A stretch of DNA of 60,470 nucleotides, the filler included, from Hausera hauseri (lineage: Eukaryota): NCBI GenBank assembly GCA_046269625.1. It is 10 parts of 10 records of this genome, joined end to end, with 100 filler letters (N's around TTAATTAATTAA, not from the genome) between each part and the next. Parts side by side here need not be neighbours in the genome. Positions count along the whole stretch, not along the records: positions 1 to 8,897 come from JBJURY010506574.1; 9 more parts are not named here. One strand, 5' to 3'. The notes under the pieces were generated by a model. The model saw nothing but the letters and a program-made list of their open reading frames with translations. It had not been told where the DNA came from and ran no database searches. This document shows, piece after piece, positions 1 through 59,147 of the stretch (the stretch's first letter is position 1; every line of letters starts with the position of its first letter). Position numbers and translations under genes: made by a program.

Positions 1-26
1 GCCCTTTTCGTCATTTCGGTCGTCTT

Positions 27-1493
27 TTAAATTTGGTCGGTTTTAGTCATCTTATGTGTTCTTCTAAATATATAATCATATAAGGAAGGTTTCTTCTTTG
101 GGTTTTGGATCGGTAATTCGATCTTTTCCTTTTTCTTCGGAATTCGAAAGATCTTGAAAATTACGTTTTTGGTCAATTCTTCAGTCGATTTTTCGGATTT
201 CCTGTAGCTGGTACCGGGTAGTTCACTTAAGGTAATTTGAAGTGCAGTTATCTTCAAATTCTCCGTTTTTGTAATTTCGTCAGTTTTATACGGTTAATAC
301 TGTTTCCGGTACTTTCTATTTATTCTGTCTGGATTCGAAGAACTACATAAGTTGCGTTCAGGGTTACGAGGAACCCGTTCGTGTTCCCACTTAATCCGGC
401 ATAAATATCTCGGAGATATTGGGTGCGTTGGCTTGCTGTTAACATTTTACTGACCTTGATGCGGCCATTACTCATGGCATCTACTACTAGCTTGAAGTAA
501 GCGTCCGTGATTCTCGGCATCGGGTAGTCACTTTCCCGTAACTATTTCTTCGTCCATTCGGCGATATCAGAGTGCGTACCGAGCTCTCTTATTCCTGAGA
601 GTTTCGAGTAAGGAAACTCCAATAGGGTTATAACTTCCTCCACACGGTATCCAGCAAGGATGTATCCGTAGAGACAATGTTCTAATTCTGTTTGTACAAC
701 TCTGATGTCCTTCCCCTTCCTAAGGTTTTCTTTACGAATTCCTGTTTGATCATAATGTCCCTCTGACGCGTTTCCTAGGGCTAATAATTGTATGGTATGT
801 TTCCATTCCATTTGTTTCTCTGACTGAAACCTCCAGCAGAATTTTCTCCGTTTTACTCCCTTCGTCACAGTTGATGGCTATAATTCTTACATTTCTGGCA
901 TTTGGTACTAGTCTATATGAGTACAAAGAATCTTCTAATTCTTTTTATAACGGTTTCTGCTGAACTTTTAGGGACGGCAACGGATCATGGGATTGTTCAT
1001 CACATGTTACTTCAAACATCGTCTTGACCGGAGAAGCGGCAACTGGGAATTCTAATTCATGATTTTGCAGATCTTCACTCCGTAATTTAAGAGTACTAAA
1101 CCTATATTGGCTTTCGTTTCCCGTGCTGCACTCTTGGTCTCGGAGCCGGTAATATATTTCGCCATCGGCTAGATGAACATGTAGGTTCCGGCCGAATTGG
1201 TAATTTATTAAGTGCTTGAGTGAATAAGCCTTGGCGTCTCGGTCTTCTCTCAGGGTATAAAGATAGATGACTCTGGCTTCTTCTTTGGTGCACTTTAAAT
1301 TATTCGGAATGGTATGAACCTGATCATATTTTACGGCTGCTCTCCCGTGCAGTTCGTTACGGATTTCTTGATAAATAAAATTAGAGTTCATGATAAGTAT
1401 GGTAGCGCAATCCTGTAAAAATTCGTCGATACTACATCGGCATCCCAAAAGGACTTCTTTTTTTGGTTCGTCGATGCTACATCGTCCGGCCAT
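27..1493 (-). pseudogene. Orphan 3' accessory ORF (~490 codons when reconstructed), copy A
   Basis: Track ORFs 945-1493, 542-868, 320-520 and 27-257 read through single stops or frameshifts. They are homologous to 39124-40408 and 28027-29502 (shared YLRDIY.AL.W.HE motif). Confidence 0.7.
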
Positions 1494-1503
1494 GTTCTTA
1501 GAT

Positions 1504-1534
1504 CTAAATAATAAACAATAAGGGTTACTCTTAC
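1504..1534 (-). promoter_or_regulatory. Putative splice acceptor before the orphan ORF (copy A)
   Basis: GTAAGAGTAACCCTTATTGTTTATTATTTAG followed 10 nt later by ATG; conserved in copies B and C. Confidence 0.55.
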
Positions 1535-1589
1535 AGTAAACAATGTTGCTAAAGTTAAACTAATGATATAATAACCCGCTCTGTAATTG

Positions 1590-3030
1590 TCAGGTTATTT
1601 TATCATATAGATCAATAGGGGCTTCCAATTCCTTTAGTTCCAACTCTGTAATTTTAGGACGCTTAGAATGATAATTTTTGGCAACTGACCGAAAAATCGG
1701 AATTAGTATAATGAGAACAAACGTTGATAGCACGACAATGGATATTATCGGTAGTGTTAATTCCATTGGGGCTTGTGTGGTGACTGGAGTTGTGACTTCG
1801 TTGTCTATGTTTTCGTATATATACGATTCTGAACGAATTTCGTCTAAGGTACGCAATGCAATTGTTTGATTTTGTTTATTCTCTGCATATACTTGTACTT
1901 TGTAATCGGATCGTGGTTTTAACAAATTGCATTTTGTCTGATAAGTGTTTTTAAATAGTGTTACAATTTGCTTATTATACGTTGTTCGGCAGCTTATATG
2001 TATATCGTAATTTAGTTTTTCCTATACAAAGAACACAATTTTAAATCGATGTGCCGAATATTTAACAGGTACACTTTCTAATTCTCTTCTAGGTCCACTG
2101 CTTGATGTAACGGGTCTCATAATGGCACTAACTCGAGTAGTCGGCTTTTCGGTTGTCGTTTCTATTGGAATCATGCATATTCTATTCTTTGGCTAATAAG
2201 TTCGCGGATGTTTGCTCGGTTTATTCGGTCGTACTTCATATAAGTCAAATTTTATTTTGAATTCATGGTTTACTGGTACCTTACAGCATGTGTATTGCAC
2301 ACAGGCATGAACGGAACAGAATTTTATTTTCGGAGTTTTTCGTCTACTGCTTCGAAAACAATACTAATTTTTTGACTAATTGTTAATCCTGTTCGAGCAT
2401 CTACTTGGATGCATTGTTTTCCTTGGTATACTAAGATCTCTTTGATATTTTCATCTTATAGCCTTATATTTGCGTCGGTGGATTGTAGCATTTCGTCGAG
2501 TTTCACTTCGAATTGTCTAGGCCAAGTGGGAATGACCAACTAAAGTCGTTGGTTTACTTCGATATAAACTTCTGATGAGCCTGGTAAGTATAGTCGAGAA
2601 GTAAAGATGTAAACATGTTCATAATTTATGTCGCAGCATTGTGTATAATCTCCGGGTTCAAAATCGCGGTTTTTTACTTCTTTTGTTGTTACATCATATG
2701 GTACAACTTGAAATCTTCCGAAATCGTGATGCGGTGTCCAAGTTTTAAATCCGACGCACACAGAGTCTGGCGAAAAGTAATGAGCCTTCATTGATTGTAT
2801 TAAAATAGTGTCTTCTCGTTTTCGGATCTCTCAGGCCGTTGGTTTCGTTTCCATTATAGTATTTATAGGCTTTGATCTGCCTTTCCGAATTCCATATACG
2901 TCTCCTAGCATAGTTCTATCGTCCCACCATTGAGTTTGTGTTCTTGGAATGTAAGATGTATTTAGTGATAGTGCTAAAACTATCTGAACGTATGATATCG
3001 GTCTAGCAATTATTGAGGAAGTTTTTATCT
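1590..3030 (-). pseudogene. Type-I membrane protein: signal peptide, two Cys modules, FN3-like domain, Thr-rich stalk, TM, short tail
   Basis: Hydrophobic ISYVQIVLALSL in frame after IN; LKPRSDYKVQVYAEN matches the FN3 L.P.T.Y.V.V.A.N signature; TM LPIISIVVLSTFVLIILIPIF; tail ends YDKIT. Confidence 0.7.
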
Positions 3031-3059
3031 CGCGATGACGTAAATTGCAACGTTTATTG

Positions 3060-4200
3060 GGCCGTATCTCCGCCTTAACGAGTCTTTGTACTGATACGAC
3101 TTCTTCTTTGCCGTTTTTGTTAATGTACACTGTGGTTAGTGTAGTTCTGGTAATTTCGTACGGCCGTCTGCCTGTACGAGTCAATTTTAATGATGTACCT
3201 TTCTTGTCTACTGGATAATTTACATAAACCCAATTTTCTTGTTCTAAGTCATGCGGTTTCGCTTTCTTATAATATTGCTTTTTAAACTGTTCTTGATATT
3301 CTTGGGACATTCTTGATATTCTTGTTACCTAAGTCTGTGGATAACACAGCTTCACGTCCATACATCATGAAAAATGGCGTAAATCCTGTTGCCGGATGTG
3401 GGGTGGTATTAATTGCAAATTGAGTTCCTTCTAAAAATTGGTCCCAATCACTTTGGTTCTTAGCTACTACTGTTGATAATATGCGTCTGACAGTTGCATT
3501 CATTCGTTCAACCATTCCATTACACTGAGAGTGATGCGCGGTAGTAGTTAACTGTTCGATTTTGAATATTTTGGTAATCTTCTTGAATAGTTCACTTGTA
3601 AAATTTCTTCCTCAATCTGTTAATATTTGTTCTGAAGGTCCATATCGCCAAATAGTTCTTCTTACTACTACTTTGGCCAAGGTTTCTGCCTTTTGGTCGA
3701 TTAACCCTACCAACTCGACAAAATGAGTCAGCCGATCAATACAAGTTAAGATGTATTTATTGTTTTTGTGAGTCGTAGAAAGCGGTCCTACGATATCCAT
3801 TGACATGGTTTGCATAGGTCTATAGGGTACATTAACTGGTTTTAATTCCGCCATGTAATTCTTTGTCTTCTTTTGTTTAGTTGCCCATACTTCACAGGCA
3901 TTTACCCAATTTTTTTACATCAATATAAATGCTTGACCAAAAGTATTTGTTCAATATCCTTTCTAATGTTTTCTTCCAGGACATGTGTCCTGCGAAATAT
4001 GAGTGGTGTACCGATATCAAAACTTTAGTTCGTAAGTTTTTCGGAATGACTATCAGTTTTCTTCCTTTTCGCTCAAAATATAGAAAGTTTTCGAGACCCT
4101 TGTTGTTTGTAACACAATATTTGTGTCCATGTCGACGCAGATGCTTCTTTAATTGTCGTCCTTTTGGTATTATATCTTTCTTAGTAAATTCTATAATCTG
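3060..4200 (-). pseudogene. Integrase (HHCC, DDE core, GPY-like C-terminus)
   Basis: MDIVGPL..NKYILTCIDRLTHF, ILTD, VERMNAT, WDQFL..FAINTTPHPATGFTPFFMMYGRE, KL..GRRPYEI. Confidence 0.93.
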
Positions 4201-4209
4201 CCGGATAAT

Positions 4210-4756
4210 TCAATCCCTTCTTTGTTCGGTTGAGATTTTAATCGCTTTATCCAACGTTAAGGCACGTTGGCAATCTATTATTTTTTCAAGCTGATTTTTC
4301 TTCATTACAGTGATTGCATTTGTTTGGGTCTTTAATCTTGATAGTGTATCGGTATCTACATGTTTATTTCCTGGCTTACATTGGAATTCGATATTGCATC
4401 TAGAAATTTCTACGATCCATCTGTTAAGTCTACATGTCGGGTTATCTGTTCGCCATTTTAAAGTCGTGACGGCTTTGTGATCAGTGACAATTATAACTTT
4501 CTGCCTGTACACGTAAACGTTGAAGTGTCGAAGCGCTTCTTTTACAGCTAGTTTCTAATTCAGTAACAGAATAATTTTTCTCGGCTTTCTTCAAGGAACG
4601 TCCTCCATAAGCAATTGGGTGTTCTAATTCTTCATCTTCTCTTTTCTGCGCTAACTCATAACCAATGCCTTCCTTAATGGCGTCTGTCTTGATTATAAAA
4701 GGTAAGCTAAAATCTGGATATCGCAAAACTGGTTCGCTTGTTAATATTTTCTTCAT
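4210..4756 (-). pseudogene. RNase H (Ty3/gypsy)
   Basis: PVLRYPDFSLPFIIKTDA, PIAYGGRSL, NYSVTELE, TDHKA, RLNRW, KPGNKH. Confidence 0.92.
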
Positions 4757-4792
4757 ATCATCAAAAGCTTTCTGTTCAACGTCTGTCCATTT

Positions 4793-5569
4793 CTATTTAA
4801 TTCCTTTTTTAAGCAAGCGGTATAAGGGTGCATTAATTTTCGAGTTATCCGGCATGTAAGTTGCGTAATATCCGCATAATCCTAACCAGTGCATTAGCTC
4901 TTTTTGATTTTGTGGTTCCATACAATCGGATATTTTGTTCAATAACGATTTATCTGGTTTCAATCCTCCTTCGCCAACTATATGACCTAAGTAGGATATG
5001 GCGTTTTGGGCCCATTTGCATTTCTTCGGATTTAATTTCAAACCAGCTTGTTCTAGTCTCATCAGCGTATGTTCGATATCTTTTAAGTGTTTCTCTTCTG
5101 TTCTCGATGCTATCATCACATCGTCTAAGTACGCAAAAGCATGATCCAATCCAATTAACATTTTGTTCATCATCCTTGTATATATGGCTGGTCCGGTAGT
5201 AATACCGAAAGGCATGACATTAAATTCATAAACGCCATCATGAGTTTTGAATGCCGTTTTATAGCGGTCTTCGTCCTCCATCTCTACTTGCCAATATCCG
5301 GATTGTCAGTCTGGAATGGTAAACCATTTCGCTCCTGAGAGTCGGTCTAACGCCTCTTTGACCGACGGTAGTGGAAAAGAATCCTTCATCATAAGATTAT
5401 TTAAGGCTCTGTAATCAATACAAAATCGATGTTTCGTGGTACCTTTCTTCTTAACCATGAGGATTGTTGAATACCAAGATTTATAGCTAGGCCTGATTAT
5501 GTCTGCATTAATCATTCGTTCGAATTCTTTTGTTATTTTGGGCCTTAATGAATGCGGCGGGGGTACCAT
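4793..5569 (-). pseudogene. Ty3/gypsy reverse transcriptase
   Basis: RFCIDYRALN, FPLP, KTAFKT..YEFNVMPFG, AYLDD, KLNPKKC, YLGHIV. Confidence 0.95.
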
Positions 5570-5970
5570 TTTGGCATCTTTTGGTCTTCCAAATCTGTTT
5601 TCTCGTTTGACCCTGGCTTTTTCTTGAATGGAATAGTTAGTTTTAAGGCTTTCGCTCTCCCGATATCTTCTTCGTCTTTTGCAATAATCGATTTATTTCG
5701 GCATAACAATTCGTAGAATCGACAATAAGACTCAGGTGAAAATTTAGTTTCGACACGAGGTGGAAATTCGGCATTCTTGTAAGGTTTTCCTTTGATAGTT
5801 ATTGACGATACTCTATACGTGTCTCCTAAAGTAGTATAAGCATGGAGCTTGACAGGAGTTTGCGCGTTATTAGCTATTCTGATTGGTACTCGACCGGAGT
5901 CTACTCTCGTTAATACATTGCTGAGTAATATATTCGGATCTAACATATCTCTTGGCTCAAAATATACTGG

Positions 5971-6400
5971 TTAATTGTCATCTTGCTGTATCTGGGCATA
6001 AATTATAATTTCTGTTCTTGGAGGAATGTTTTTGTCAACTGGTATCCACAATTCTCCAAATTTTCTATCCTTAGCATTTTTCACACCTTTTTTGGACCTG
6101 ATTTCTATTAATTTTCCTGTTTGTAAGACGATTGCTATATTTGGTAGCCTTTTCAGTAGATCACATCCTAGAATGATGTCATCCGTTAATTGTTCCATAA
6201 TTGCGAATTTATGATGAAATGTTTGCCCAACTATTTGGACTTCTGAGTTCCATTTAAACATTGGTTTTGACATTTGGCCAAAAGCTCTTGTACTTCCTGG
6301 GTCTTTTGCAGATGGAGGATATAATTGTCCTCTTAGAGTTTTGGTATTGAATCATTTTAATGCAAGACATTTCCGATCCTGTATCGATTAAGGCATAAAC
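5971..6400 (-). pseudogene. Retroviral-type aspartic protease
   Basis: VYALIDTGSEMSC at 6400-6362 (DTG at 6385-6377, not in the ORF track); DIILGCDLL downstream. Confidence 0.9.
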
Positions 6401-6990
6401 TTCCCAATTTTCAATATTGATTTTGGCGAAGGGTCTCCTTCTATTACTGTTCCGAAACAGTTCGGTGTATCCTTTGAGAGTTTTGCCCCTGATAATTTGT
6501 GTCCATTAATTCGGATTTCAAGAGAGGATACTATATTCTCCGATAATTGTTTTAATTCTTCATTTGGGTATAATTCGTTGATTTCTATGTGTACTTCTTC
6601 CGCTTCATGTGTACTGATTAGTGGTTCTCGATTATTAGTATGTAATTCAGTATTCTGGAAAGTTTTTAACCATGGATTGTCCCAAACCATTGATCGAGTT
6701 TCTATATTCCGAGGTTTTCTAGGGGAATACAACATCTTGGGACCATCCGTGGATTGTCGGTAACACATTTTCCGTAGAATTCCGTAACGCTTTGTTCCCT
6801 CATAAGGATCTTCTACATTAATTGTTCTTTTATAGATTTCCGTCTGATATAAACTCATGGATTGTTTGTCGCAATCTTCATAGAATGGAACTGTAGGAGG
6901 TAACATGGGCAATGGCGCTTTAACGACAGAGTACATCTTATGTCTATTTATTCCTAAAAGTACTTCTTCTTCCTTAGGGTCGTCATCATC

Positions 6991-8897
6991 TTAATTATTT
7001 CTTCGTAAATTGGGTTTTGAAAGTTTCTGCTTCCGCAAGAATATGAGTCTTCCTTTTCGTTTACGATTGTAATAGTCAACATGGCGTTCTACGTCCGATT
7101 TCCATCTATTTTCTTCGTACGCTTTCAAAAATTTTCCAAAAGGCGTTATGATTGCCGTCAATACCTTACATGAAAATCCAGTCAATGTAAATATTTCATA
7201 ACCACTTATTACTGCTTGGATGACTGCTTTAATCATCTGTATCAAGAAGTATATCGCTAAAAATCCGGATGCAGTTTGTCCGAATATCAGAAATTTTCCC
7301 AACATTTTGTAAGGTATTTCGGTTGTTACTCGCTGATAATGATTCACACCGAGTAAAGATTCCAATTTAGCTTGATATAGGGTGTCGTCTACTACCCACG
7401 CCATAGCTCGGTTTAACTCGTGTGCTCGTTGTCGTGGAAAAGCAAGGAATTGTCTGAAAGCCTCAATTTTTTTCGGTCTGTATATACCTTTTGAGGAGGT
7501 GTCTTAAAATTTGTCGTCAATTTATTTGGAGCGACAATAATACCTCCATTTGGCAAACTAACCCAATCTGTCTTACTACGTCTAAACATAGGTTCTCCTA
7601 AGATTGCCTTACAATTTTTAAGAATGGTCGGTTGGGTAGCGTTATCCAATAACACTTTCGTCAGCGGTGTAGCCAATCTCGGAATATTTTGGTAGATAAC
7701 AGGAAGTTCCTGGATGCAACGTTTTTCTTTTACGTTGATGGGTACATCTCTCTTTTCACATTCATAAGTTAGCAATACCTCGCTTGTAAACCTACCAAAA
7801 ATTCCTTCTTTCATGGAAATTATCGGAGAAGCTAATTCTGGGTTTGCATATATCAGAGCCATTTTAGTTCTCATAATTTGTGTATCCAATTTGCAGTCAT
7901 TCATTATCATTTTGTGATATAATTCTGTTATTCCAACTTGTCCTTTATAGTAGAAGAAATCATCTCTATTTTTCAAGTAATCTTCGACGCGGACATCCTA
8001 TGTTTCTAACTTATAAGTTTTCGCACTTATCTCCGTTTCTGCGACAAAAAACGCTTCATAGTTTGTGACAAACATCACTACATTACATGGAGAGATCATC
8101 TCTTTTTTAATAAACTTCAACCCATGTTAACCCGAAATTAATATAGTAGGTGTAGCGTGTTCCAATACATCTTCACAGGTCCTCGAATTGGATTCTGATT
8201 TGTCCACATATCGTTTTCCTGTAGTCTCATTGAACTTTAGTTCTTTAATTTTAATAAAATTACAATTTCTTCCAGAAGGAGGTTCCCATATTATCACCGA
8301 GCTTCTAAAAGCACAGGTTACATCTTGTAAATGACATTTCTGATTTTTAGTGTATAACTTAGTGACATTATGGAACATTACCTTCTGTGATCGCATTTTT
8401 GATTCGTAAAAATCCACAACCACCACATTTGATTTTAATCCTTTTCCGGTATCGTATTCGGCTCTATTACAATGTCCACTATGCATATCTAATCTTCTGG
8501 CTACTACTTTTTATGCCCTGATTATTTTCCCTGGCTGCATCTCCAATTGCATACTATCCAATTGTATTCTCCCAGTTTCCTTGGCTTGCTTGCAGTGTTG
8601 ACGTTCTAAGTTCATCGGAATTAATGGGGTTCTTGGTTTGATTATAGATGAGTGTCCATGAATCAACCCACAGTGAAAAATTCTACGTGATCGTTTCAGC
8701 ATGCATTCCATTCCATTTAGCCATATCAATTCTTACTGATGATACTGAAAATAATTTTTCTCTTTTGTCTCCAACTTGTGTGGTCTAGCATCATCGCATG
8801 CTTCCAGATCCATTAGAGAATATCTCTGTCCTAGCTTAAACTTATCGCAGTCGTAGACAGTTACAGCGTCTATATGCTTTATTAGCACCATCAAGGT
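6991..8897 (-). pseudogene. env: Chuvirus-like / herpes gB-like class III fusion glycoprotein (env)
   Basis: One frame from 8897 reads TLMVLIKHIDAVTVYDCDK..YSLMDLEAC..CMLKRSRRIFHCG..VIIWEPP..C..GIFGRFTSEVLLTYECEKRDVPINVKEKRCIQELPVIYQN..PLTKVL..C. After a frameshift near 7410 comes a hydrophobic C-terminal segment FLIFGQTASGFLAIYFLIQMIKAVIQAVISGYEIFTLTGFSCKVLTAI. This Cys/motif pattern is what I recognise from chuvirus-type glycoproteins carried by retroelements. Confidence 0.8.
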
Positions 8898-8997: not shown

Positions 8998-11910
8998 ATT
9001 CTTCGGATAATCCGAGGTATCCATATGTTGGGCCAATTGGGCAATGTCCTTATAAATATCATCTGTATGGATCTGATAGACAAAACTATCAGTATCCATA
9101 TACATCAGCTACATGGACTTGGAGACTTGGGGACCATGATGTCATAATGGAATTGATACATCAAGGTGTTTGACAGATTTAATATTGCCATACCCACATA
9201 TATGGGCTTATTGAATACCAAGGATATTTTCAGCATATGGATGCTGACAATGTTCTCAGTATATATGGTGCTACTGTGGAAGTTAGGCTTGGCAATAAGC
9301 TTCTTTGCCCGCTTTCACTGAGAGACCAGGTCGATGTTGATCCTGTAGCGGATATTCTCCACCGTCTTGCCAAAAACGCTGTTGTTGTAAAGCTTGAAGT
9401 GATCCTTCTCAAATTCGTTCTTGGCATTTGTCCGCAACTTGGTATTGAGATCTATGTAGAGCTGAAGCCACATGGACTGGCTGAACTGCAGAGTTCTATG
9501 GATCTTTGTAATGCGGAGTCCATGTCTAAGTGTCTGCTGGAGATTGATGTAATGGACTACATACCTCTCCCTATTACCCAGATGACAAAGCAGCTTTCTA
9601 TGCTTTCCATGGGGCGGAGGTCTGCTCTAAGGGAGGAAAGGCAGCTGTTGATGCCTTGCGTGGATAGAAGCCGGATATTCCATATTCACCTCAAGTATGT
9701 AGCCCGTATCTCCAGTGGGATCCAGATCCAATATAGGAATGTTTTCAGGATTCGCGACCCATTTAAAGTTATTATATGGCAATGGGGCGCTCATTACATA
9801 TCCATACAAGTTGTTGGCATTCAGGTATGATATATATGATGATTTCTTGGATGAATCATACTGGACTATATACTTGTTGTTGGCCTCGCTATACCGATGA
9901 ATGGCTTGGCATATTTCGCCCCTAATGCCTCTCTCGATCGTAAGGATCATGTCGTAATCCTTAATGATCTGCAACCTAATACCAGTATATCTCAGCATAG
10001 CTGCCCAGCTCATACTTAAAACCGTAAAGAAATGAGCCAAATCCAATGCATGGCTCTTCATTGTAATATCCCTGAAACTCTCAAAGACATCTGTCAGAAG
10101 AAACACGTCCGTTTTGAGGTATACGTTGCTGTATTCCCCTATTGTCCTGTAGTTGAATGCCTGCCGGACATTCTGAGCTTGCTGATAGTCCTCATTATTA
10201 ATATCACGGTTCGACAACTGGCTATAAAGTCAATTCTTTGGCAGTAATTATGTCTCATCTAGTGTTTCCCATGATGTTATATAGTCGTGGGGAAACACTG
10301 CTTTCCTTTTAACTAGGTCAAATTTAGTGGGAAAGAACCGCTTGGTCTCCTTGAGTTCTTCGTCAGGGAGGTTCTTCATTAAACTATCCTGTAAAGACGA
10401 CATGAAACGGAAACTGTCTATGAAGCGAAGCTTGATTCTTCCAACATGCTTAATGAAAATAATGAATTTTTCCTCACTATTGGGAAAGATATCAATGTTC
10501 CCATAAATGTTGCCCAGTTCCCAAACAATGAAGGGGGAATCATATCCACAGAGATTGTAGAACACTACATGCACACATGTGAATATTTTGCAACGCAGAT
10601 TGCAGTTGTTTCATGCTGCACCTCCATATTTGCCTGTAAAATGGCAATGATCCATGACTTTATGATTAGTAAAGGACATATCGCACAAGTAACATGTTGA
10701 TGCCTTGCGCCATTCTTCTTCTTGCTGCTTCGACATGCTCATATTATCCTTATGCTGAAGCATATTTTCAAGCCTATGAGCCATGTCTTCAAGTCGTTTC
10801 ATGAAATGTGCTGCTGCACCTAGACCTCTGAATGGAAATGGTTCATTGTCCAGTCATTTGGCATACATGCAATATGATGAGAGTTCATTATATTGGTGTG
10901 CCGTTGTGCTACTATGTTGAAGATTAGGGCTGCAGCTGAGAATTGGCCTGAGAATAGCTTCAAAGTCGCCTTCCCAAACTCCTTGAATTCAATGTAGTCT
11001 TCCTTGGGGAATTCTGGCCTGATGGAGTAATTGTTGTTACAGTACATCTTGTGCTTCTTCAACTTCTCCACAGCTAACTTGCCGCTGAAATGGGAAAAAC
11101 ATCGTTCGCATATTTCGATTCTTGTTGTGTATTTATAATTTGGGATCTGACTAGACGTTCAAAGTTCTTGATTCAAACATAATGTTTCTTTTCTCCATCG
11201 TTTAGCAGGAACCGATCCCTATGATCTTCCAATTCAATGTCGCATATATGCAGGGGATAGAATTAGTCCTCGTCATCCAAGCCAATGATGTTGATAGACA
11301 CGTTGTTGATTCGACTGAACTTTTTGACTTCATCTATGGATGGAGGGAATGTGATACACTGGAAGTCATAGTTGTGCTGCACATCCTTATATAGCCAAAT
11401 TCAATCTGTTGCATGTTTTGGATCCTGTACGAATTTACATAAAATGGCATACATAAAACACTTGTTGTCATCATTAAGGACATTAATGCATGCCTTTTTA
11501 TTAACGATCCATTCTGGAAGTTGTATATAGGAGCTGCCCCGCATGGGAGAGTAATTGTGAACATACACAAGCAATCTCTTGATGGTTGCCAGAGTCCATC
11601 CGCTCTTCTTACGCTGGCTCTCATCGGCTTCACGGATCAGCTTCGCATGCTCTTCATGCAGTTATTCTGCTATATTGGCGTTTTCCAATATGGGCCTACT
11701 TTTGGTCTTGAAGGCTCTATTGGATTCTTCGCCATAGACATTGATGTATGTAACCTCCAGTTTCATATTAACCTTAATGGCCTTGAGCTCAGCTATGTTG
11801 TCCTGGTGAATTCCTTCTGTTTCTTCCTTTGTATATTTTAAGAACTCCGTGACGGTTGTTTGGTCAGTTGTATCAATAACATATCTACGGCATTTTCTCT
11901 TTAATGCTGC
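8998..11910 (-). pseudogene. Polinton/Maverick/adintovirus-type protein-primed DNA polymerase B
   Basis: INVLNDDNKCFMYAIL (OTU-like region), TCYLCD..DHCHFTGKY (endonuclease VII-like insert), RFIDSFRFM, YLKTDVFLLTDVFESFR, YLNANNLYG (motif A), KLYNNSVFGKT (motif B), YMDTDSF (motif C). Confidence 0.92.
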
Positions 11911-11914
11911 TGCA

Positions 11915-12600
11915 TCAATTGGCCGCTGTCTTTGACTTTTTGTTGGAGCTGCTACGCTTGATGGGCCTCAAGGCGTCTGATGGGCCTGATGCGCATGATG
12001 CGGCTGCACGTTTCAATTCCCTAAGATGTTTCGCAGCTGCTGCACCAGATTCTGCAGCATAATGCAAAGCAGAGTACTGCGAATAATGCTGCGAAGTAGA
12101 TGCATCAGTATTATGTTGCGCATTATAAATGGCCTTCTTTGATTTTAATGCGAAGTGACTCAAATGATGTTTGTGATAATTATAGAACCGTATGTAAATT
12201 GCACCGCATACAGTCTCGCATCCCGGACATATATAATATTGGATCCTTTTGGATTTGTGTCCATAATACCGCTGCATCGTTTCATGACACTGTTGCAAAT
12301 TATGTGCTTTGTTGTGCAATAAGGATAGGAACAGCACATCTGATTTGCTTTTGGGACACTTGTTGTCATTGGCATATTACTGTTCAATATTTCTTTCTTC
12401 GATTTTGTGAACGAATCCAGATGTTGTTTATGTTGATTATAAAATTCCTCGTAATCGCTCCGGTACACTACCTCACATGCAGGACATACATAGTATTGAG
12501 TCCTATTGTGTTGGTATCCAAAGCAATGCTGCATTACCCTGTGGCAATTCTGCTCCTCGTGTTTCTGCGCCATGCAAAATTTGTAGAAATTGCAAATCTA
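11915..12600 (-). pseudogene. Duplicated Cys/His (zinc-finger-like) region, probably the N-terminal part of the pPolB ORF
   Basis: QNCHRVMQHCFGYQHNRTQYYVCPACEVV..FYNQHKQHL versus QQCHETMQRYYGHKSKRIQYYICPGCETV..FYNYHKHHL. Confidence 0.55.
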
Positions 12601-13168
12601 AACAAACTAATTATTTGAGGCGCACAATTAAAAAACTCACCACTTGTGGAATTAATTTTGGAAATAATGAAATATATTGTCATATCAACACGCACTGCTC
12701 GTTTATTGAATTTTTGATTATTTTCTAACATTCTAGAACACTTTGTTTTAATGCATCAAATGAATTAAATTTACGTTGGCGCCAAATTCAATTTACAAAT
12801 AGGTTTTCATATATGCAGATTCGAATGACGTCATTAGATTGTTTGATTGATGTATTCTTAACCGAATATTTGAGTTTGGATCGATAATTATTTGAGTTTA
12901 AGCTCGATTTCAAATATTTGACATCATGTACCTAATCACAATATACATGTTCCTATCTATCTGTGCTTAAAGATTTTTTGATTTTAATGTGGTTTACCTT
13001 CAAATTCAACTCAATTGCTTAATCAGTATAAAAATGACTTAGCATTTATTAAGTACTTTACCATATTGGAAAACCTTGTTTTTATACACTGCAATGCACT
13101 AATATTGATTGATGTATAGGTTTTTGTATATGAGGAATTGAATGAAGTCTGTCTCACTTGCAATTTGG

Positions 13169-15789: not shown

Positions 15790-16980
15790 TGTCTTGTCTT
15801 GTATTCAATCCATAGTCATCGCGAATCAAGTCTTCTTGAATCTGAAGACAATATGTCGTACTGCAGTTTTAATAAGCGGCTGTGGGCTGCCATTTAAGAC
15901 ACAGTCAATGTTTGGGTTGTCAGGAGGTAGAGTCCGTCTTAGCTCCTCGAGTGTGGTGCAAGACAGCAGGTGGTGCTTCACTGTCTCATTTAGGTGTTTA
16001 CAATGTCTGCATATTGCTGTAGTAGGTATGTCTAATCAGTTTCTGTGAGCATTTAGTGTATAGCGGCAAGTTCTCAACCTGAAGATCTATGTTTGTTAAT
16101 TTCGTTCAATCTTGTTGATAGCATCTTTATTGTTGGATGATGTAAGGTGACTGAAATGTTTCCTTCCGGTTTTAGCATGTGCCCACATATTCATCCAATC
16201 CTATCTGCAATTATTCTTGATTATATGTCTTTCTATTGCCAAACTTAATGGATGTTGTATCTGGAACATTTGTGCTACAATCTTTGCAAGTGCCGCGTAT
16301 CTCATTGAAAGTGATATTTGTGTGGCCTTGTATCCACTGCTTATGCACATCACCACCATATAGGTTTATAAGAGAGGGGATTTGTTCGTACCTTTGGTTT
16401 TTTCAGTGAGGTGGAAGATTAGGTTCGGGTATTGTTGTTATTCTTGTCTCTGTTAGGTAATGCTTTTCTGATAGCTCTTTATATCTTTTCATGAAAGAAG
16501 TCTTCTTGATTCGTCTCCAGGGTTCGTAGTTGGTTACAATCTTCTTGCACGGATTGTGTTTGGATTTTCTCAGAAATAGTTTTGCTGTTAGACTCCTTAT
16601 CTCTAGGGGTTCCACACTAGCAGAAATCTCACACCCATGTGTTGATATAGTCGCAGGCCGCCGATAATTAATCTTTGTTCTGGATACCGTCTAACCTGTT
16701 CCTCGTGATCTGACTGTTAATGGCTTGCAGTGGCAAGAGTAGGCCATGACAGAGCATTCATATCCCAGGTATAATTGTTGCAGTGTGTGCTGATTGACTC
16801 CTCAATTTGTGTTTACCAATCCTTTTATAATAGTTAGTCTTTTTGAGGTCTTTGCTACCAGTGCCTAAGCACGTAATCTGTAAGTAAGTATAGTGTCAAG
16901 AAGAATTCCTTGGTAAGTCTGCATGGTTGTTTTCTTTTGCCATTATTTTTTTTCTAACTTTAGATGAAAATGTTTCCTGG
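15790..16980 (-). mobile_element. LINE (I/Ingi-like) 3' fragment
   Basis: Degenerate ORF2 end: EPLEIR..HNPCKK, then a C-terminal ETVKHHLL.C..L.ELRR.L knuckle region and a CAAGACAAGAC tail. Confidence 0.6.
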
Positions 16981-16994
16981 CTATCTGACTGCTG

Positions 16995-17240
16995 CGGGTG
17001 AAAAGTGTCTGCAATAGGCTGTTAGTGCAGCTAGGGTATGATTTACAGTGAAGCACCACTTGCTGTCTTGCTCCGCACTCCAGGAGTTAAGACGATCTTT
17101 ACTACCTGACAACCCTAACATAGACAGTGCCCTATATGGCAGGCCACAGCAGCTTATTAAATCTGCACAGTACCACATATTGGCATTAAAGTCTACAAGA
17201 CCTGACGCTCGATGACTGCGGATCCAAGACAAGACAAGGG
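16995..17240 (+). mobile_element. Second LINE 3' end, opposite orientation
   Basis: FTVKHHLLSCSALQELRRSLLPDNPNIDSALYG..QLIKSAQYH, ending CAAGACAAGACAAG; related to 15790-16030. Confidence 0.6.
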
Positions 17241-25515: not shown

Positions 25516-26387
25516 CACATACGATTCGTTAAAGATACGATTTGGAATGCGACGACTTTTCGCGCCCAAATTTTCATCGAGAATGTTCGATTCGTCAATG
25601 GTTCGCTTTATTGCATGAGGCTTCGTTTGTGTCAAACTGTCATCGGCTAGATTTGAATCGTTGACAGTTTTCTTTGATTTGCGGGGTTTCTTTTCTTTCA
25701 AACTTTCATCACCGACATTGGATTCGTAGAGGGTTTTAATTGACTTGCGTTGTTTCTTTTCTTTCAGACTTTCATCGACTAAATGAGATTCGTTTGTAGC
25801 CTTGACTTTTCTCGGTATTTTGTTTAATTTAGCATTTCTTAGAGAACCAGCTTCCATGGTTAACATTATCTTAGATTCCGGAGAAGTTAAACCAAACTCA
25901 TTTCACTGTTTTTACTTTGTGTTGGTATTTTGGGCGTATCAATAGGCTTGAATGGATGTATATTATACAAGTCTTGAATTTGACTGCCTGTCAGTTTTAA
26001 TAATGTTGTAAACGATAAAGTGTCCATATCAGTTGTGATTTCTTCTGATAGTGTATCATTAACCTTTGCTTCTTTCTTAATCAATTTATCAGAAGAACTG
26101 ACAGTAACATCTTTTTGTAACGTGGTAGTTGTGGCACCAGAACATTCAGCATTTTCCGTGGAATTCAAGTTGTTAGTTTGACTATCTATATTTTCGATTT
26201 CACCTCGTACTTCGTCAGAATTATCTTTACCCACAATTTCACTGTGATCTTCGTCATTTTCTTCTTTGTCTATAATTTCTCTTTCATTTTTCTCAGTTTC
26301 ATCTTTATCTACAACTTCAATATCATTTTTGTCATTTTTACCAGCATCCGACACAAACAGTAATATGTTTTCTTCCGTTTTTATCAT
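25516..26387 (-). CDS. Low-complexity acidic/basic protein fragment with 22-aa tandem repeats
   Basis: Two adjacent ORFs in different frames; repeat units TLYESNVGDESLKEKKPRKSKK, TVNDSNLADDSLTQTKPHAIKR, TIDESNILDENLGAKSRRIPNR. Confidence 0.4.
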
Positions 26388-26759
26388 CTTTGAGTCCGAT
26401 TTGCATAAAATATCTTCAAATCATTTCATGCAATTATAGCAGAAAATTTTATATAAGACCGTCTAACGGCCTTCAACACTCGGTAAAACATGATTATTTT
26501 CGCCTTCCAGTTTTCCGAACCCTGCCAGAGGTCATATATTCATTATTTTGCACACTGTTTTTATATCACGCATATTCATTTAACAGTCTAACCTTTAACA
26601 ACCCTTATTTTTATACAACTTTTTATGTACAGTACAACCAACATGGACACACATACATTTATATATACACTATATATGATTTTATATATATATACACATA
26701 TATATCTTATGCGTCCTCTATCTCTCTTCCGTTGAAGTTCGACCGGATTCCCTAACCAG

Positions 26760-29503
26760 TCAATCTGGTTCCAACAGATGGTTTAAGGCAAGTAAACCCG
26801 CTAAAGGCCATGTAAAATTTCAAATACAGTTCACAGACAAAATAAATGATGTAACGAAAATGTGTGAATTCCAATACGGAATACAGCCGAAATGTTGCGA
26901 ATTGGACTTCGGACAAACAGACAAATACAAATTTCGTATGTACTATTACAAAATTCTCGGAGTCCAAACGGACGTAAATCTGCAGTTCGAAATAGCCATG
27001 CCAGGACAAAATAGAACAAACAAAGCGGAAATTAACAATTTAATTCAAAGTACTTACCCACAAGACAAATCTTGAATGATAACATAATCGGAATCTTTAA
27101 GGGCATCAAAAATAGATGTATTCAGATAAAAACCAAAACAGAATTAACGGGTAAGAGACAAATTTCCATTCGGTTCATGCCAATAAAAAGTCATTCCCCC
27201 AGTAAATTATTGTTACGTCGGATGTGATAGAACCAATCCATGTTGTAAAATACCAATGAGTCACAAATTCAAAATACAGTTCGATCTATAAAAAACCCGA
27301 CACAACGAACCAAGTATTTATCTAAGTAGCTATTATCCGAAAGATCGAGTATAGAAAAATCCTTTTCCAGTAATTCCGAGAAAACCGTCTTCTGTTTCAT
27401 GTACAATGACTGTTACTAATATCGTCACTTCGAGTAAAATGCCTGAAAGAGAATTAGAAAATATACCTTTTAAATATTTGAAGCACCACTATAAAATTGT
27501 TTTTCGTTGAGGAAAAGTTAAACTACGATATTAAGACCGAATGCCGCACCTTACACACCAGTCAGACAGTAATATTAAAAAATGGCAGCCACGAAACCAA
27601 ATGTAAACTATTACGACCACAACAAGACTATGTAATTCAAGTCTTTGCAACCAATAAAAAAGGCAAAACTTTTACGCTACGAACATTGAGCGAAATTCAT
27701 GCAAAACCCTGTGTATATTAATACCGAAAATATGGTTACCACTGAAAAATCAACTGAACTAACAACCTTGCCGATAATATCAATTTTCGGTTTGTCAACA
27801 CTTGTTATCATGATGATAATTGCGACTATTTTATTAATTTTCAAAAATTGTACTAAGCGTTGTAAAAATCAGAAGGTAGATATTAGGGTGAAAGTGTACC
27901 GAGACGAAAATAACCTGACAAATGCAGATCGAGATATCCTATCATCAGAATGAGAAAATATTTCATTTTGAAACGATGATCTGCCTTAGGCTTAATCTTT
28001 ATTTCTTTATTTTTAGAAGTGTAAATATGGCGGAAAAGCCGAAATTATCAGTTCAAACCAAAAGAGAAGACACTATGTTGAAGAATTTTTCCGTGAACAT
28101 GTAAGAGTATTAATGCCAATTCCAAATCCCTAAACCGCCAAATGAACACAGAATTACAAAACAAAACATTCCTAGAAATTAACGAAGAAAATAAAGTACT
28201 AAACGAACTAAAAGGAATTACGGAGGAAAGTTGAACTATCCGATTACATGCAATGGGAAATGACCCAAACGCTCGTATTTATGCGCTGAAATATCTGATA
28301 AATTACGAAACAGGCAACAACTAACAAATTTACATTCCCCTGGTAGAAGGCGAACTAAATTATAGAATCATCGAACAAACTTGGGACCTTAATCAATGCA
28401 GACAATGTAGGTTAAGCACCTTTAGTCTCTGCAGTGGTAGTTTTGTGCAAATGCGAACTAGAGTTTCGGATTATTGTAGTGTCAACAAAGATTATGTTCG
28501 AAATTACGTACGAAGATATACTTTTCGTCATCTTTTCCCCATAGTATCAAGAACTGCCATTGGAAAAGATGTAGAACAACATATAATGACGATCTACTAT
28601 CTAGAAAATGAAGAAGGCTCTTATGTTCCTATTGAAATTTCAAACCAAGAAATAAACAGAAAGAAAACACTTTCCAAGATTATTGCGCCTTGGGAAAGAG
28701 TCTGGGAAACTTTTCTGGACTTCACCGGAATTGAAAGGGAAAATCTCATCGAAGGGAGAGATATGAAAATACTTAAAGAAGTAAATCATGCAATATACGG
28801 GTGCATAATCGTTGGATATCAAGTCCAGAATGTGGGAGAGAAGATGTATATTAGACTCGAGAACATCGCAGGGATACGCGAAATGGATATACACTCGGTA
28901 GTTACGAAATAATTAGTAGTCACACTACAACAAAAGAATGGCTGTTTGCCCCTAACTGTAGAAGCTGGGTTTAAACTTATGCTAGAAGCCATGAGTGCTA
29001 AATACGTCCATATATAAAAACTATTATCAGCGAGATAGCGCAGTCAATACCTCCGAGATATCTATGTAGCTTTAAATTGGAACCATGAATGGTTACCAGA
29101 AAATTCGACACAGAACCTTCGAAGTAGAACTAACCTAGAAATGTTGAGCCATAAACACAGAAAAAATTACCGCGCTTATTCCAAAATATGAATTATTAAC
29201 CCCACGGAGGGAAACAATTTCCATGTCACTATTCCCACGCGGATAGAACGGAAACAACTCGACAACTCAAGGACTGCCTCGGAAGGAATAAATAGGCCAA
29301 GCACCAGTTATGGAATCAATTCAAAATTTCAATGAGCCGCATATCAGAAGAACGACAATTCAAAATACCAGAGGTTCCAAAGAAAACAAAGAAACTGAAG
29401 ATTGATGAGCCTCTCAAAGAAAAAAACGGAAATCTTTCTACGACTACCTCATCGGAAGAAAAGACAAATCCAAGAAGGAAAGGCACGAATCCCTCCATAT
29501 AAC
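26760..29503 (+). mobile_element. Copy C (more divergent) of the 3' cassette: FN3 membrane protein + orphan ORF
   Basis: CEFQYGIQPKCC; CYVGCDRTNPCC; CKLLRPQQDYVIQVFATN; TM LPIISIFGLSTLVIMMII; YALKYLINY; QYLRDIYVALNWNHEWLP; FKIPEVPKK. Confidence 0.85.
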
Positions 29504-29603: not shown

Positions 29604-30392
29604 TGGATCATAATCTGCCATGTATTTGTTGTTGGCCTCACTGTACCTGTGAATGACCTGGCAGATTCCGCCCCTGATGCCTCTCTCAACCATGAGGACC
29701 ATATTGTAATCGTTCAAGATCTGGAACCTTATGCCTGTATAGCGCAGCATCGCCGCCCAGCTTATTCCTGGAGCTGTAAAGAAATGGGCTGGATCTAACT
29801 TGCGACTCTTAAGGGTCACATCCCGGAAGCTTTCGAAGACATCTGTAAGCAACAGCACATCTATGAGGAGATAGATATCACTGTATTCCCCTATTGTCCA
29901 GCATTGGAAGGTCTGCCATACTCTTTGGGCGTGCTCATAGTCAGCATCGCTAATATGACTGGATGACAACAGACTATAGAAGTCCTCCTTGGCCGGTAAT
30001 GCTTCTTCATCCAGTATCCTTGAGCTCATCAGCTGGAAGATTCTTTACGAGGCTGTCCAGTGACGAGTTCATGAAGCGGAAGCTATTGATGAAGCGAAGT
30101 CTAATGCGGCCCACATGCTTCGTGAAGGTGATGTACTTCTCACTATTTGGAATCACATCAATGTTTCCCTCGATATTACCCTATTCTCGAACAATGAAGT
30201 GTGAATCGTATCTACTAAGATTGTGTAATAACGCAAGAACATATGTACATGTCTTGCAGCGTAAGTTGCAATTGTTGCACGCTGCGCCTTGGTATATGCC
30301 TGTAAAATGGCTGTGATCCCTGACTTTATGCTTGTCTCATGTGAATGGCTTTCTGCATAAGTAACATGTTGCTGCTTTGTGCCTATGGTGTC
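29604..30392 (-). pseudogene. pPolB fragment (exonuclease/EndoVII region, with internal deletion)
   Basis: DVLLLTDVFESFR, LDPAHFFTAPG, ERGIRGGI; continues the fragment at 32500-33950. Confidence 0.9.
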
Positions 30393-32500
30393 CACAGCGG
30401 CCGGTGCCTTTTGGCCAATTTAGTCGGGCACGGCCGGGCCTCCGTTGCCACCGCGTCGGGCCCATAGTTGGGCCCGATTCCGCGCCTCGAAAATTTTCCT
30501 AAATTTGTCGACAGGAGCAAGCACCACTGAATTTTGATTATATTTTGTAATGGTTATATTAAACAAATACCTGTAATATAAGATCTGAAGAGAGCCATAC
30601 TAGAATTGTTCAACTATACTGTGAAGAACTATCCAACGGTGTATATCTGTGCCATTTGGCCAACATTCTCATTTCCTATAGCATTCCTACCGTCTATACG
30701 TCCAGTCCCGGTCAGCGTGAATTAGGAAAACGGAAATCAAGAAAGAATTTTAAAAAAATACTTTTTGGAAACTTGTCGACGAAACGGTGTTCCTGAAATC
30801 TGCAATCGAGGCTTTCTGCACATCATGAAACATCTCAAAACAAAATCTCTAAAACAATGCAGTAGAAAACAACCAAATCGTTCCTCACATTTAAATCTGG
30901 ACTTTACCAATTTCACCAAAACGTTTCCTGCAAGTTAGTCTCATATCGAAACCATTACAAATGAAAATGGAAACTCATCCCATCTGCCATCTGCCGATTA
31001 TGAAAGCGATTCAGAAAATGCATTCACCGAAGAGTATAATAACAGTCCAAAATCCCAGCTCAACAACACAGAAGATTCTATGAAAGAACAATTAACACGT
31101 TCTGATTTGGGTTACAATACTCAATGAAACCCAAAAATCCGAATTTGCTCAGAAAGAAATTCCAAAATTTCCGGGAAGTCAAAGACGATAAAATACATGG
31201 CAATTTGGCGGCTGAGACGAAAAATGAAACGGGCCCAACGATGAATCTGTATTCACCAGATGGAATGTCTAAAAAGAATCGAAATTATTGGTCTTTGAAT
31301 ATGACAAGTGCTATGCTCAGCTTTTATCAGACATACAGACCATCACGCTTCGGTTTTAACCAAAAGAATAATGATAATATCAAAAGTCGACGAGCTAGTC
31401 TGCCTGATGAGAACACTGACGAATATGATACAGCGAACGTGGCCGAAGCCAATTCTCAGTGTATTGTTATTGTAGATAACTCAACTTACGATATGGATAA
31501 ACCAGCTAATCTTTCTGCCGCTATTTAAAAGCAGTCAAACAATAACAATATATTAAGAGAGAGAGTTCCACAGTCCTATCAAATCACCCACATCATCAGA
31601 CTATCACAAACCAGAATACAAACCAAAACCCAGACTAACGAATAATGTCAGACGTTTTAGCATCGACAGAACAACTGGAAACAATATCCAAAATCAAGTT
31701 CATGAAACGATAAAGAAATTTCATAAAATTATCGAGGCCCAATTACATGTACAGATTAACTCTAAGAAACTCTGTGATTCAACAATCTCTGATTTATCTA
31801 AACGTCTACAGGCTTTTATTTTTAATGTCTGGGAGGGAAAGGAAGACATTCTCAAGAAATATTACTCACAGACCGTCAATACAAACAAACCGTGACTTTT
31901 CATCGGAAGAAATTGATCTCAATAATTCCGATTTTTCTAGATTCTTATTTTTGAAACGAATGACTAGCAATTCGATTATCTATGGCAACGTAATTTTCTG
32001 TATTGTTTTCTAATTCCATTTTTATTCGTATTTTTGTCACTGTTTAATTGATAATTTTGTGGGACATAATGGATTAGTGCCGTGTTGTATATGTAAATAA
32101 TGTTTTGGCAATTTGTTTAAAAAAAATTTAAAAAAATTTTACACGTTTGAATTCGAACTCTTGTTGAGCCATATTTAGCGTAAAAATTCCTTCTTGGTTT
32201 AATCTTACAATTATCAATCGAAATTTGCTTATATTTGGAAATTTATTGTTTCAGTTTCTATAAGCGTGAACGGTGTGATCATATTTCAATTGTTGCTACG
32301 AATTTGCATATTTGGCCTATTTATTGTGTATTCAATAGTTGGTTGATTACAAGGTTAAAGAAACAATGCAAGTCGCAATAAATTCGTTCGGAGCTGGTGT
32401 ATACAGATGTCATCTTATTTTCGTGCAGAAGCGAACAAACCAACATCGGAGTTTAATTTGTCCATTTATAAGACCTAATAGTGCCATTCACATTTTTCTT
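30393..32500. mobile_element. ~2.1-kb insertion splitting the pPolB, with a GC-rich palindromic left end
   Basis: pPolB reads ..LQQHKGYMVM on the right side and ..HKAATCY on the left side. Left end starts CACAGC and contains TCGGGCCCA-tagt-TGGGCCCGA (30456-30477). Confidence 0.55.
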
Positions 32501-33950: not shown

Positions 33951-33991
33951 GCGCTAGTGGGTTTTATGAAATTTATAAAACTTACAGTATT

Positions 33992-38955: not shown

Positions 38956-39023
38956 TGTAGGTAAACGGAAGATATATAAATGAATTCCCGCAATTTTACA
39001 ATGAATGCATTTATCAATGCATT

Positions 39024-43754: not shown

Positions 43755-44089
43755 CCTGCTTAGTACTAGTTGTAAATGTGTAAAGTTTTAGTTTCCAACT
43801 GTAAGTGAAATGTAGTGCTCAACGATCTTGAAGTTGTACCTGTAGAGGTTTATTTGGTATAGAAAACACATTTTTCTTGTTTTTCAAGTTTTGAGCGTTT
43901 TATATTATGCAAGTAGAACAATGTTACAAATAAGACTGTATTTCTTAACAAAATTATGTATTTGAAAAACAATCTGATTGTCCAATACATGCACAAATGT
44001 AACACAGCGAAAATCTTTGAAATATTATGTGTGAAGCCTTTTAGTTACTCATAGTCACCAATGACTTAGTTTGTTAAAGCATTAACAGG

Positions 44090-44625
44090 TAACTTCTTGA
44101 TTGTTTGAGTTGGTACACTTTGATAGTGATCAGCTGCTTCCCTTGTTCATCTTAGGTCAGGTCCAAGTTAAAATCTTTAAGCAACTTTACACCTCTCTCT
44201 GCTGTGTCATTTACATGATACAGACTCAGAACGCGACGCTGTCCTTCTATATAATCTCTTCTATTATTACAATTATCTGAATGTGTCTCAAGGAATTCTG
44301 TGTTGATATTTGAACATTGAAATACTGCATTAGTCCGACTGGTTGAGAAAGACCCAAAGTGGAGATCCGATCCTGACAAAAGCCCTGAATCTCCAGTTAC
44401 ATTGTGTGTGATGTTCGGACGAGAGAGTCCTCCAATTATTGCTCTATTTTCATCTGCTGTAATTCTCTCAGAAAATAATGCCAATCCAATCAGTTTATTG
44501 GAAAGATACCAGAAACCATTCTGCATATCAGGCTTTGAAACTATGCTAATTTCTGGATCAGTAGCTGCAAACTTTTCAAGATCCAACCAGAGCTGCAGAT
44601 CATTTATTGGGGCATCAACTGAATC
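44090..44625 (-). pseudogene. DNA transposase C-terminal fragment (hAT-related, hATm-like)
   Basis: APINDLQL..FWYLSNKLIGLALFS..VNDTAERGVKLLKDFN. Confidence 0.6.
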
Positions 44626-46310: not shown

Positions 46311-46587
46311 TATGTGCATATGAATGTAACAAATGGGTAACTATACCAAAGAACATTACATGTATTTATCGTGAACATGATTCATATTGTGGATATAAAA
46401 AGTGTTTAGCGTTATGCCAAAGTTATATTGTTACTAAATAAATGTGTTATGAAATTAGTTGGTCTTATCCTATATAGTTGTTACTTAGTTTTACTTGGCC
46501 TTATGCTATATCCCACATTACTTGATCAAGACAACACGATATTTCTATACAACATTTATTGAACAAAGAATAACAATATGTACATAG

Positions 46588-57905: not shown

Positions 57906-59147
<1,242 letters not shown>

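Follow-up and report, generated by a model that had tools for sequence, protein, structure and literature searches.

We analysed a window of 60,470 nucleotides (nt), filler included, from Hausera hauseri (assembly GCA_046269625.1) and studied the contig at its start, which covers positions 1–8897 (the N spacer starts at 8898). The minus strand of this contig carries, in order, a gB-type envelope glycoprotein (Env), a protease (PR), a reverse transcriptase (RT), RNase H, an integrase (IN), a protein with a signal peptide (SP), three modules and a transmembrane segment (TM), and an open reading frame (ORF) of ~490 codons. We consider it likely that the contig is a decayed, 5′-cut copy of a multi-copy Ty3/gypsy element of the Burro-like GAG-ENV-POL kind, which would encode one polyprotein and a separate accessory protein. 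The parts of the element and its two further copies in the window are as follows, with the evidence for each in brackets; P0067, P0068, P0069, P0078 and P0128 are related proteins described below.

7100–8897, minus strand: gB-type (chuvirus/Monjiviricetes-like) Env, with SP end, ectodomain and TM region, broken (Pfam PF24664)
6440–7100, minus strand: Env tail or linker, in the frame common to the Env TM and the C-terminal half of PR (reading frame)
6100–6450, minus strand: retropepsin, PR (RVP, E 0.003 at ~6440–6350; P0067 1284–1326)
5620–6100, minus strand: PR–RT spacer (tblastn, 26–29% with P0067, P0068, P0069 and P0078)
4380–5560, minus strand: RT and RNase H, broken (Pfam; 49% to P0067/P0068; RT tree)
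3020–4200, minus strand: IN with H2C2, core and C-terminal domain, broken (Pfam; colinear with relatives to 3023–3095)
1590–3015, minus strand: second membrane protein, of type I, sharing its frame with the IN C terminus, broken (homologue P0128; models; ratio of non-synonymous to synonymous substitution, dN/dS)
1504–1530, minus strand: candidate splice acceptor, a pyrimidine tract with AG at 1505–1504 (same arrangement in 3/3 copies)
27–1493, minus strand: accessory ORF of ~490 codons, broken (dN/dS, profile match, tail likeness)
39124–43654, minus strand: copy 2, with RNase H end, IN, second membrane protein, acceptor and accessory ORF (nucleotide comparison)
26740–29503, plus strand: copy 3, more distant, with modules, TM, acceptor and accessory ORF (tblastn)

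The Pol of the contig is of the Ty3/gypsy type, with the order PR–RT–RNase H–IN, both by Pfam and by its position in an RT tree among gypsy-type Pol proteins. Pfam matched RVT_1 (E 2e-27), RNase H (E 2e-26), the H2C2 part of IN (E 5e-12) and rve (E 5e-7). This copy is dead: every part of it is interrupted by stops and frameshifts. Because the contig begins within the Env SP, gag, the long terminal repeats (LTRs) and the primer-binding site (PBS) lie outside the window. A scan of the contig for LTR-sized direct repeats found none, the longest repeat being 34 nt at 76% identity, and no tRNA genes were found in the whole window.

Env matches PF24664 from ~8890 to 7100 (E 6e-32 for 7500–8897, read with X; E 1e-18 to 2e-17 in 6991–7503) and is broken by four stops in 7500–8897 and a frameshift near 7500. 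Its stretch 7100–8897 is colinear with P0067 562–1164 and with P0068 556–1155. A linker of ~200–230 codons leads from the Env TM region to PR, so that the env–pol gap is ~0.7 kb and stays in frame: one frame at 7503–5599 (635 codons, 4 stops) holds the Env C terminus, the TM, the linker, most of PR and the PR–RT spacer, with the catalytic motif of PR in a short stretch of the neighbouring frame. The linker has no significant likeness to the linkers of relatives (30–107 of 300 shuffles match the score). On sequence comparison, the PR–RT spacer is homologous to those of the relatives and occupies the place of the dUTPase-like domain of Burro; Pfam found no dUTPase match in this region of the window.

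Behind the integrase, a stop-free ORF at 2831–3328 spans both the IN C terminus and a second SP. The protein that follows has two Cys-containing modules, a Thr-rich stalk, a third module, a TM (~1765–1670, hydropathy peak 2.9) and a short tail ending in a YxxPhi-like motif; its SP is weak in this copy (hydropathy 1.7). When the IN-end/SP region was searched with phmmer against 1.84 billion representatives, five matches were returned, and the sole strong one was P0128, an intact protein of 479 amino acids (aa; E 3.5e-27) that is 35% identical to the second protein of the window and colinear with it from the SP to the final residue. Modules 1 and 2 of P0128 are mutual repeats (0/300 shuffles attain the score). 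The P0128 ectodomain shows no likeness to those of P0067 and P0068, Pfam, PHROGs and NCBIfam name nothing in P0128, and a search of viral contigs with it gave 0 of 2. Two further proteins, P0131 (bacterial cadherin repeats, E 9e-5) and P0132 (shark tenascin, E 9e-4), were not accepted as homologues. Tails of the second protein end in YDKIT and YDRIT, short and sorting-like; a PDZ-binding tail, considered for this family, is by eye a misfit to these ends and may suit P0069 (STFV).

Modelling suggests that the modules, including those first seen only as Cys modules, are probably FN3-like beta-sandwiches. A single-sequence model contains three strand-rich modules, the top Foldseek rows for it are mostly tandem FN3 (best E 1.8e-3, none ≤1e-3), VIA places module 1 near Ig/FN3-like sandwiches (Z 5–6.5) and Pfam gives a weak fn3 match near 1900–2010 (E 0.025). 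Counting against the call are the low confidence of the model (predicted local distance difference test, pLDDT, 46), the marginal Foldseek values and a nine-row profile of the second protein that found no FN3 in the PDB, and for these reasons we grade the fold as likely only. Relative to copy 2, dN/dS is 0.05–0.28 for IN and 0.42 (222 codons) and 0.40 (93 codons) for two of three segments of the second protein, suggestive of purifying selection on the protein behind IN. The synonymous divergence (dS) between these copies is 0.24–0.39 over the second protein (1590–3015 versus 40525–41916) and higher elsewhere (IN, 0.64–3.1; accessory ORF, 1.65–2.5); the low value hints at module recombination between subfamilies, or at constraint at the RNA level.

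The candidate acceptor consists of a pyrimidine-rich tract and an AG that precedes an ATG by 10, 16 and 10 nt in the three copies (10 nt in contig 1–8897). The accessory ORF that starts there has an orphan N-terminal part, a weakly DEDD-like domain (~900–370) and a basic C-terminal tail, and nothing in it is named by Pfam, PHROGs or NCBIfam. Its tail shares two short colinear stretches with the third copy (E 0.013 and 7e-4, each a single comparison). Against copy 2, dN/dS is 0.19 (268 codons) and 0.14 (59 codons), and against the third copy 0.43; these values are rough because synonymous sites are near saturation, and they suggest that the ORF is under purifying selection. A six-row profile of the accessory ORF matched the DnaQ structure 8h18 with E 0.035 over 94 positions. 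In the DnaQ alignment the acidic positions of ExoI and ExoII are mostly substituted (ExoIII was judged by eye only), and the four acidic catalytic residues of DEDD nucleases are largely missing. A model of the domain (pLDDT 46) retrieved only common helical matches in a fold search, with no DEDD nuclease among them, and tblastn of the nuclease-like part against phages gave no match. We put the chance that the middle domain is a dead DEDD nuclease at about even.

The 3′ half of the contig is repeated at 39555–43653 with 77–79% nt identity, and its module, TM and ORF part recurs in the contig at 25516–29503 (23–50% aa identity by tblastn), where no IN or SP lies ahead of the modules. Both copies that span the IN–SP junction keep it in one frame, with no Met there. 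We also placed contigs of run X1 on the element at a likeness of at least 80%; this run may be the source of the contig itself and is then not independent of it. A total of 24,460 contigs were placed, covering 30/30 bins. Over 6250–7300, from the Env TM to PR, there were 2852 contigs, again in 30/30 bins, of which 3% continue in unlike sequence. The eight pieces shown are 11–19% divergent and tile 6355–7004 and 7031–7236, most of the linker; they show that many other copies have the same env–PR junction. Several breaks of the contig 1–8897 copy look private, because most other contigs of the run read differently there. Depth is low over 300–1485 at the 80% threshold; copy 2 shares only 55% protein identity in this part, and we therefore do not read the low depth as absence. 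These observations agree with the sequence-only reading of this DNA, which had proposed the domain order on one strand, a membrane protein with SP, Cys modules, FN3 and TM behind IN, a splice acceptor followed by an orphan ORF, and a 3′ half present in two other contigs: each is found as sequence, with the FN3 part probable and the acceptor a candidate. That reading had named an LTR or nested junction between env and PR as one thing that would overturn it, and neither the repeat search in 1–8897 nor the contigs over 6250–7300 gave any sign of one. Head to head with copy 3 lie acidic low-complexity ORFs with short repeats (25516–26420, minus strand), separated from it by a TA-rich tract near 26640–26700.

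Intact relatives show what such an element looks like when whole. An RT search among proteins of 1226–3500 aa gave 1213 matches, and among the 120 listed P0067 (2871 aa) and P0068 (2694 aa) have the highest RT identity (49%). Both carry PF24664 ahead of PR in one ORF, after Gag (identified in P0068 by its likeness to P0067). By tblastn, P0067 is colinear with the window over 8894–3095, and P0068 is colinear with it as well. A third protein, P0133 (3735 aa), was found through the cluster of P0078 and reads Gag with CCHC knuckles, SP, gB, TM, two PR-like domains, RT, RNase H, IN, SP, ectodomain and TM. All three are intact, natural single ORFs (2694–3735 aa) with the order gag–SP–gB–TM–PR–RT–RNase H–IN–SP–ectodomain–TM. 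A quick RT tree of 72 rows, for which 4 of 121 rows were excluded because their alignments were short and 46 pseudoscorpion rows because they were nearly redundant, groups the window with P0067, P0068, P0069, P0078 and P0133 (SH-aLRT 96). An IN motif is present in 100 of the 121 scanned relatives, and 7 of these 100 have at least two hydrophobic stretches behind it, namely all 5 members of the window's clade and two elements outside it. Because this holds for 5/5 clade members and is seen in intact ORFs, a Pol placed between two membrane proteins, with Gag heading the same ORF, is a trait of the clade. The ectodomains behind IN differ: two FN3-like domains and a mucin stretch in P0133, a short Cys-rich one in P0067 and P0068, and three FN3-like modules in the window.

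The claim that the intact ancestor made one polyprotein, in which a luminal fusogen, a cytosolic Pol and a second luminal protein alternate, is borne out at the level of the ORF by P0067, P0068 and P0133, which are also the intact elements with env 5′ of PR whose discovery had been proposed as a check; the topology itself is predicted. The accompanying claim that Pol is tethered without a Gag–Pol fusion is wrong at the ORF level, as Gag heads the same ORF in 3/3 full-length relatives, and cleavage at the first SP would part Gag from Env–Pol. Wider searches added little. No long relatives with the linker were found among 391 candidates, and none with an env–linker–PR frame among 3847 candidates, both weak evidence. 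Metagenome contigs gave 0/164 pattern matches with the env query and 13/128 with the RT query, all only 27–43% identical, and viral contigs gave 0/11 with the RT query. Some relatives vary the arrangement: P0069 has extra retropepsin-like copies and ankyrin repeats behind IN, ahead of SP, ectodomain and TM; P0067 has, by eye, one extra PR-like copy behind IN; and PR is doubled before RT in P0133. Outside the clade, P0122, one of the two elements there with hydrophobic stretches behind IN, has a 2439-aa gag–pol–chromodomain ORF running into an SP, a weak rhabdovirus glycoprotein match (E 0.002) and a TM; by analogy, its glycoprotein behind IN may be like that of an ordinary pol–env element.

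We compared this layout with known systems. BEL/Pao elements with a chuvirus glycoprotein are ruled out, since Pol matches gypsy-type families and env lies 5′ of PR rather than 3′ of IN. We know of no second membrane protein behind IN in the nematode NERVs. These elements of Sacco et al. 2022 reportedly occur in nematodes only and have a continuous gag–env–pro–pol ORF, an RNA-virus-like glycoprotein and additional ORFs. The Burro/GYPSM1 giant gypsy-like LTR elements of planarians, in the accessible part of their account, carry env in frame between gag and pol and resemble the window family in that a mononegavirus-type Env is part of a single large polyprotein and that accessory ORFs are present; they also have a domain between PR and RT, where the window has its spacer (PMC6431247). 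Burro elements exceed 25–30 kb in total, and the contig 1–8897 measures 8.9 kb. In the window the env–pol frame is seen, and the gag side is seen in relatives only. Ankyrin repeats, known from Burro (PMC6431247), also occur in P0069, a member of the window's RT clade. The window differs from Burro in having an SP/beta-sandwich/TM protein and then an accessory ORF behind IN, neither of which is named in that part of the account (PMC6431247), and Pfam found no BIR, ankyrin, MATH/TRAF, BCL2-like or SUMO-like domain in 22 window ORFs, the gag–env part being incomplete in the contig.

Elements with gB-type Env in the order GAG-ENV-POL are described from flatworms, bryozoans and nematodes, and ENV-GAG-POL from mites, in the available text of Chary and Hayashi (PMC13524379). 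The HSV/gB-type errantiviruses among them (Smed_errantivirus_1-6, Bryozoa, Nematoda) share with the window a Ty3/gypsy Pol with a gB-type env 5′ of it (PMC13524379). In the window this env lies within 2 kb of pol and in the same frame; gag 5′ of env is seen in P0067, P0068 and P0133, and the window contig ends in the Env SP. By eye, domain I–II of Env in P0067, P0068 and P0133, and more distantly in the window, resembles the Platyhelminthes C1a rows shown there, a kinship that makes a flatworm host likely, and the Smed spans of 14.5–18 kb, of which 3 kb at either end is an extension, are compatible with ORFs of ~2850–4000 codons (PMC13524379). The main text, as far as available, has no mention of a membrane protein behind IN; the figures and sequence repository of that study may show one (PMC13524379). 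Bdelloid Juno and Vesta LTR elements have, in the part of their description at hand, an ORF3 behind pol that is DEDDy or TM-containing, and they resemble the window family in this non-env extra ORF, which encodes a DEDD-type nuclease or short TM proteins (PMC5408684). In Juno and Vesta this ORF stands in place of env and keeps its catalytic residues, whereas the window keeps env and has a weak nuclease likeness without the acidic residues (PMC5408684). The assertion that no element with this layout had been described fails for its env-first part, because an env in frame between gag and pol was already published (PMC6431247, PMC13524379, each as far as accessible). Our literature search found no second membrane protein, whether FN3-like or of another kind, behind IN in gag–env–pol elements, nor the accessory ORF of the window family, nor an account of what the env-before-pol order means for membrane topology, with most subscription papers and Repbase reports beyond reach. 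On this basis the clade-wide second membrane protein with an exchangeable ectodomain, and the accessory ORF of the window family, appear undescribed.

In our working form of the element, one polyprotein of Gag, gB-type Env, Pol and the second membrane protein would be threaded through the endoplasmic reticulum (ER) by its SPs and anchors, and a separate accessory protein would likely come from a spliced RNA. The steps follow the general rules of signal-peptide and stop-transfer insertion. The first SP would send Env into the ER lumen, leaving Gag in the cytosol and anchored by that SP; the Env TM would bring the chain back to the cytosol, where Pol would fold; and the second SP would direct the second ectodomain into the lumen, with the last TM leaving a short tail. 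This topology would require the chain to cross the membrane an odd number of times once past the Env ectodomain. Signal peptidase, cutting after both SPs, would yield Gag, Env–Pol and the second protein. Pol would then stay on the cytosolic side, its two ends held by the Env tail and the second SP, until RT and IN are released by PR, and it would enter budding particles via Env and the membrane rather than via Gag. All four components, Gag, Env, Pol and the second protein, would be produced in equimolar amounts. Behind IN there may be a constant slot reserved for a surface protein, with the ectodomain swapped from family to family. The second protein would most likely work alongside the gB fusogen in attachment or in contact between cells, a host-modulating role being nearly as likely, and the accessory protein, which would combine a basic tail with a domain that resembles a nuclease but is catalytically dead, would probably bind nucleic acid.

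Several observations weigh against this account. Neither gag, nor the LTRs, nor the PBS of the window family was seen, the contig ending before both ends of the element. The row of the window in the quick RT tree has a long end branch (1.6) and an odd composition. By eye there are two hydrophobic stretches in the Env TM region, and the count of membrane passes bears on the topology. A 112-codon middle segment of the second protein, which includes a stretch locally shifted in copy 2, has a dN/dS of 1.04. The ectodomain of P0128 is only marginally similar to its counterparts in P0133 (6/300 shuffles) and P0069 (10/300), with profile E values of 0.4–6.5. For the accessory domain, hhalign to Escherichia coli DnaQ, in the expected register, gave E 0.4, no improvement on two controls at 0.15 and 0.41. 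Finally, P0128 is recorded as a protein of its own (479 aa), and its first 10 residues, just before the SP, include three Met.

That record leaves room for separate production in some families, and it is the starting point for an alternative that we hold to be unlikely: the second membrane protein would be a product of its own, from its own start or a spliced subgenomic RNA in the manner of a classic ORF3, merely in frame with IN, and Pol would be tethered at its N-terminal end only. The module block of the third window copy, with no IN ahead, and the candidate acceptor that would already serve the last ORF fit this idea. The P0128 start may, however, be the choice of a gene caller in a broken copy, both window copies with the junction keep IN and SP in one frame without a Met, and 5/5 clade relatives hold the hydrophobic pair behind IN within the Pol ORF. 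A chimera, formed by nested or tandem insertions or by mis-assembly of a high-copy repeat, is very improbable and already largely refuted. It could draw on the env–PR junction being present in only one window copy, and on run X1, which may itself be the source sample and is fragmented, none of its listed pieces reaching across the whole stretch. Against it stand the single frame over 635 codons from the Env TM to the PR–RT spacer, the order shared by three intact ORFs, the divergent contigs that cover the linker piece by piece without any prevailing loose end, the lack of an LTR-sized repeat in the contig, and the recurrence of the 3′ half, its order unchanged, in two other contigs. Judged by its sequence, the contig 1–8897 is one element.

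The function of the second protein is where an alternative has more weight, and we regard it as a real possibility that the protein modulates the producing cell, as a receptor or adhesion mimic, an immune decoy, or a sorting or scaffold adaptor, and is not an entry factor. The wide variation of ectodomains across the clade, the presence in P0069 of additional PR copies and ankyrin repeats at this position, the sorting-like ends of the tails and the many host-derived regulatory domains in Burro-like elements (PMC6431247, as far as accessible) would all suit such a role. Co-translation with Env and Pol, however, would place the protein in the same membrane in equal amounts, and a stalked beta-sandwich protein would resemble attachment proteins. 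Returning to an attachment role, we tentatively extend it, by analogy with flaviviruses and alphaviruses, to the flatworm-type clade as a whole: a whole enveloped particle might be made from one ER-threaded polyprotein, with Pol packaged via the Env tail and not via Gag, a swappable attachment protein in a constant slot behind IN and a fusion-plus-attachment mode of entry, to which the window family would add a spliced dead-nuclease protein. If so, Gag:Pol:Env stoichiometry and the packaging of Pol would be solved differently from retroviruses, and the separate, swappable surface protein would bear on the infectivity of retrotransposons and their movement between cells in flatworm-like hosts.

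The rest of the window holds other repeats and genes. A DNA polymerase B-like gene is present in several decayed copies that are 68–85% alike (8998–13168, 29604–33991, 43755–49255 and 51281–51721), which by eye we take to be of the Polinton/Maverick type. An imperfect tandem repeat with units 68–72% alike lies at 45334–45977, and an inverted repeat of ~190 nt with 80% identity at 15793–15984 and 17045–17238. An unbroken 220-codon piece at 57933–58595 (minus strand) is by eye S-adenosylhomocysteine hydrolase-like, and its contig carries a gypsy gag-like ORF at 54416–55075. An unbroken ORF of ~520 codons at 37441–39023 (minus strand) resembles by eye the TOG domains of XMAP215/ch-TOG; its contig also has gypsy gag- and RT-like ORFs, and the TOG-like ORF may derive from a host gene by capture or retrocopying.

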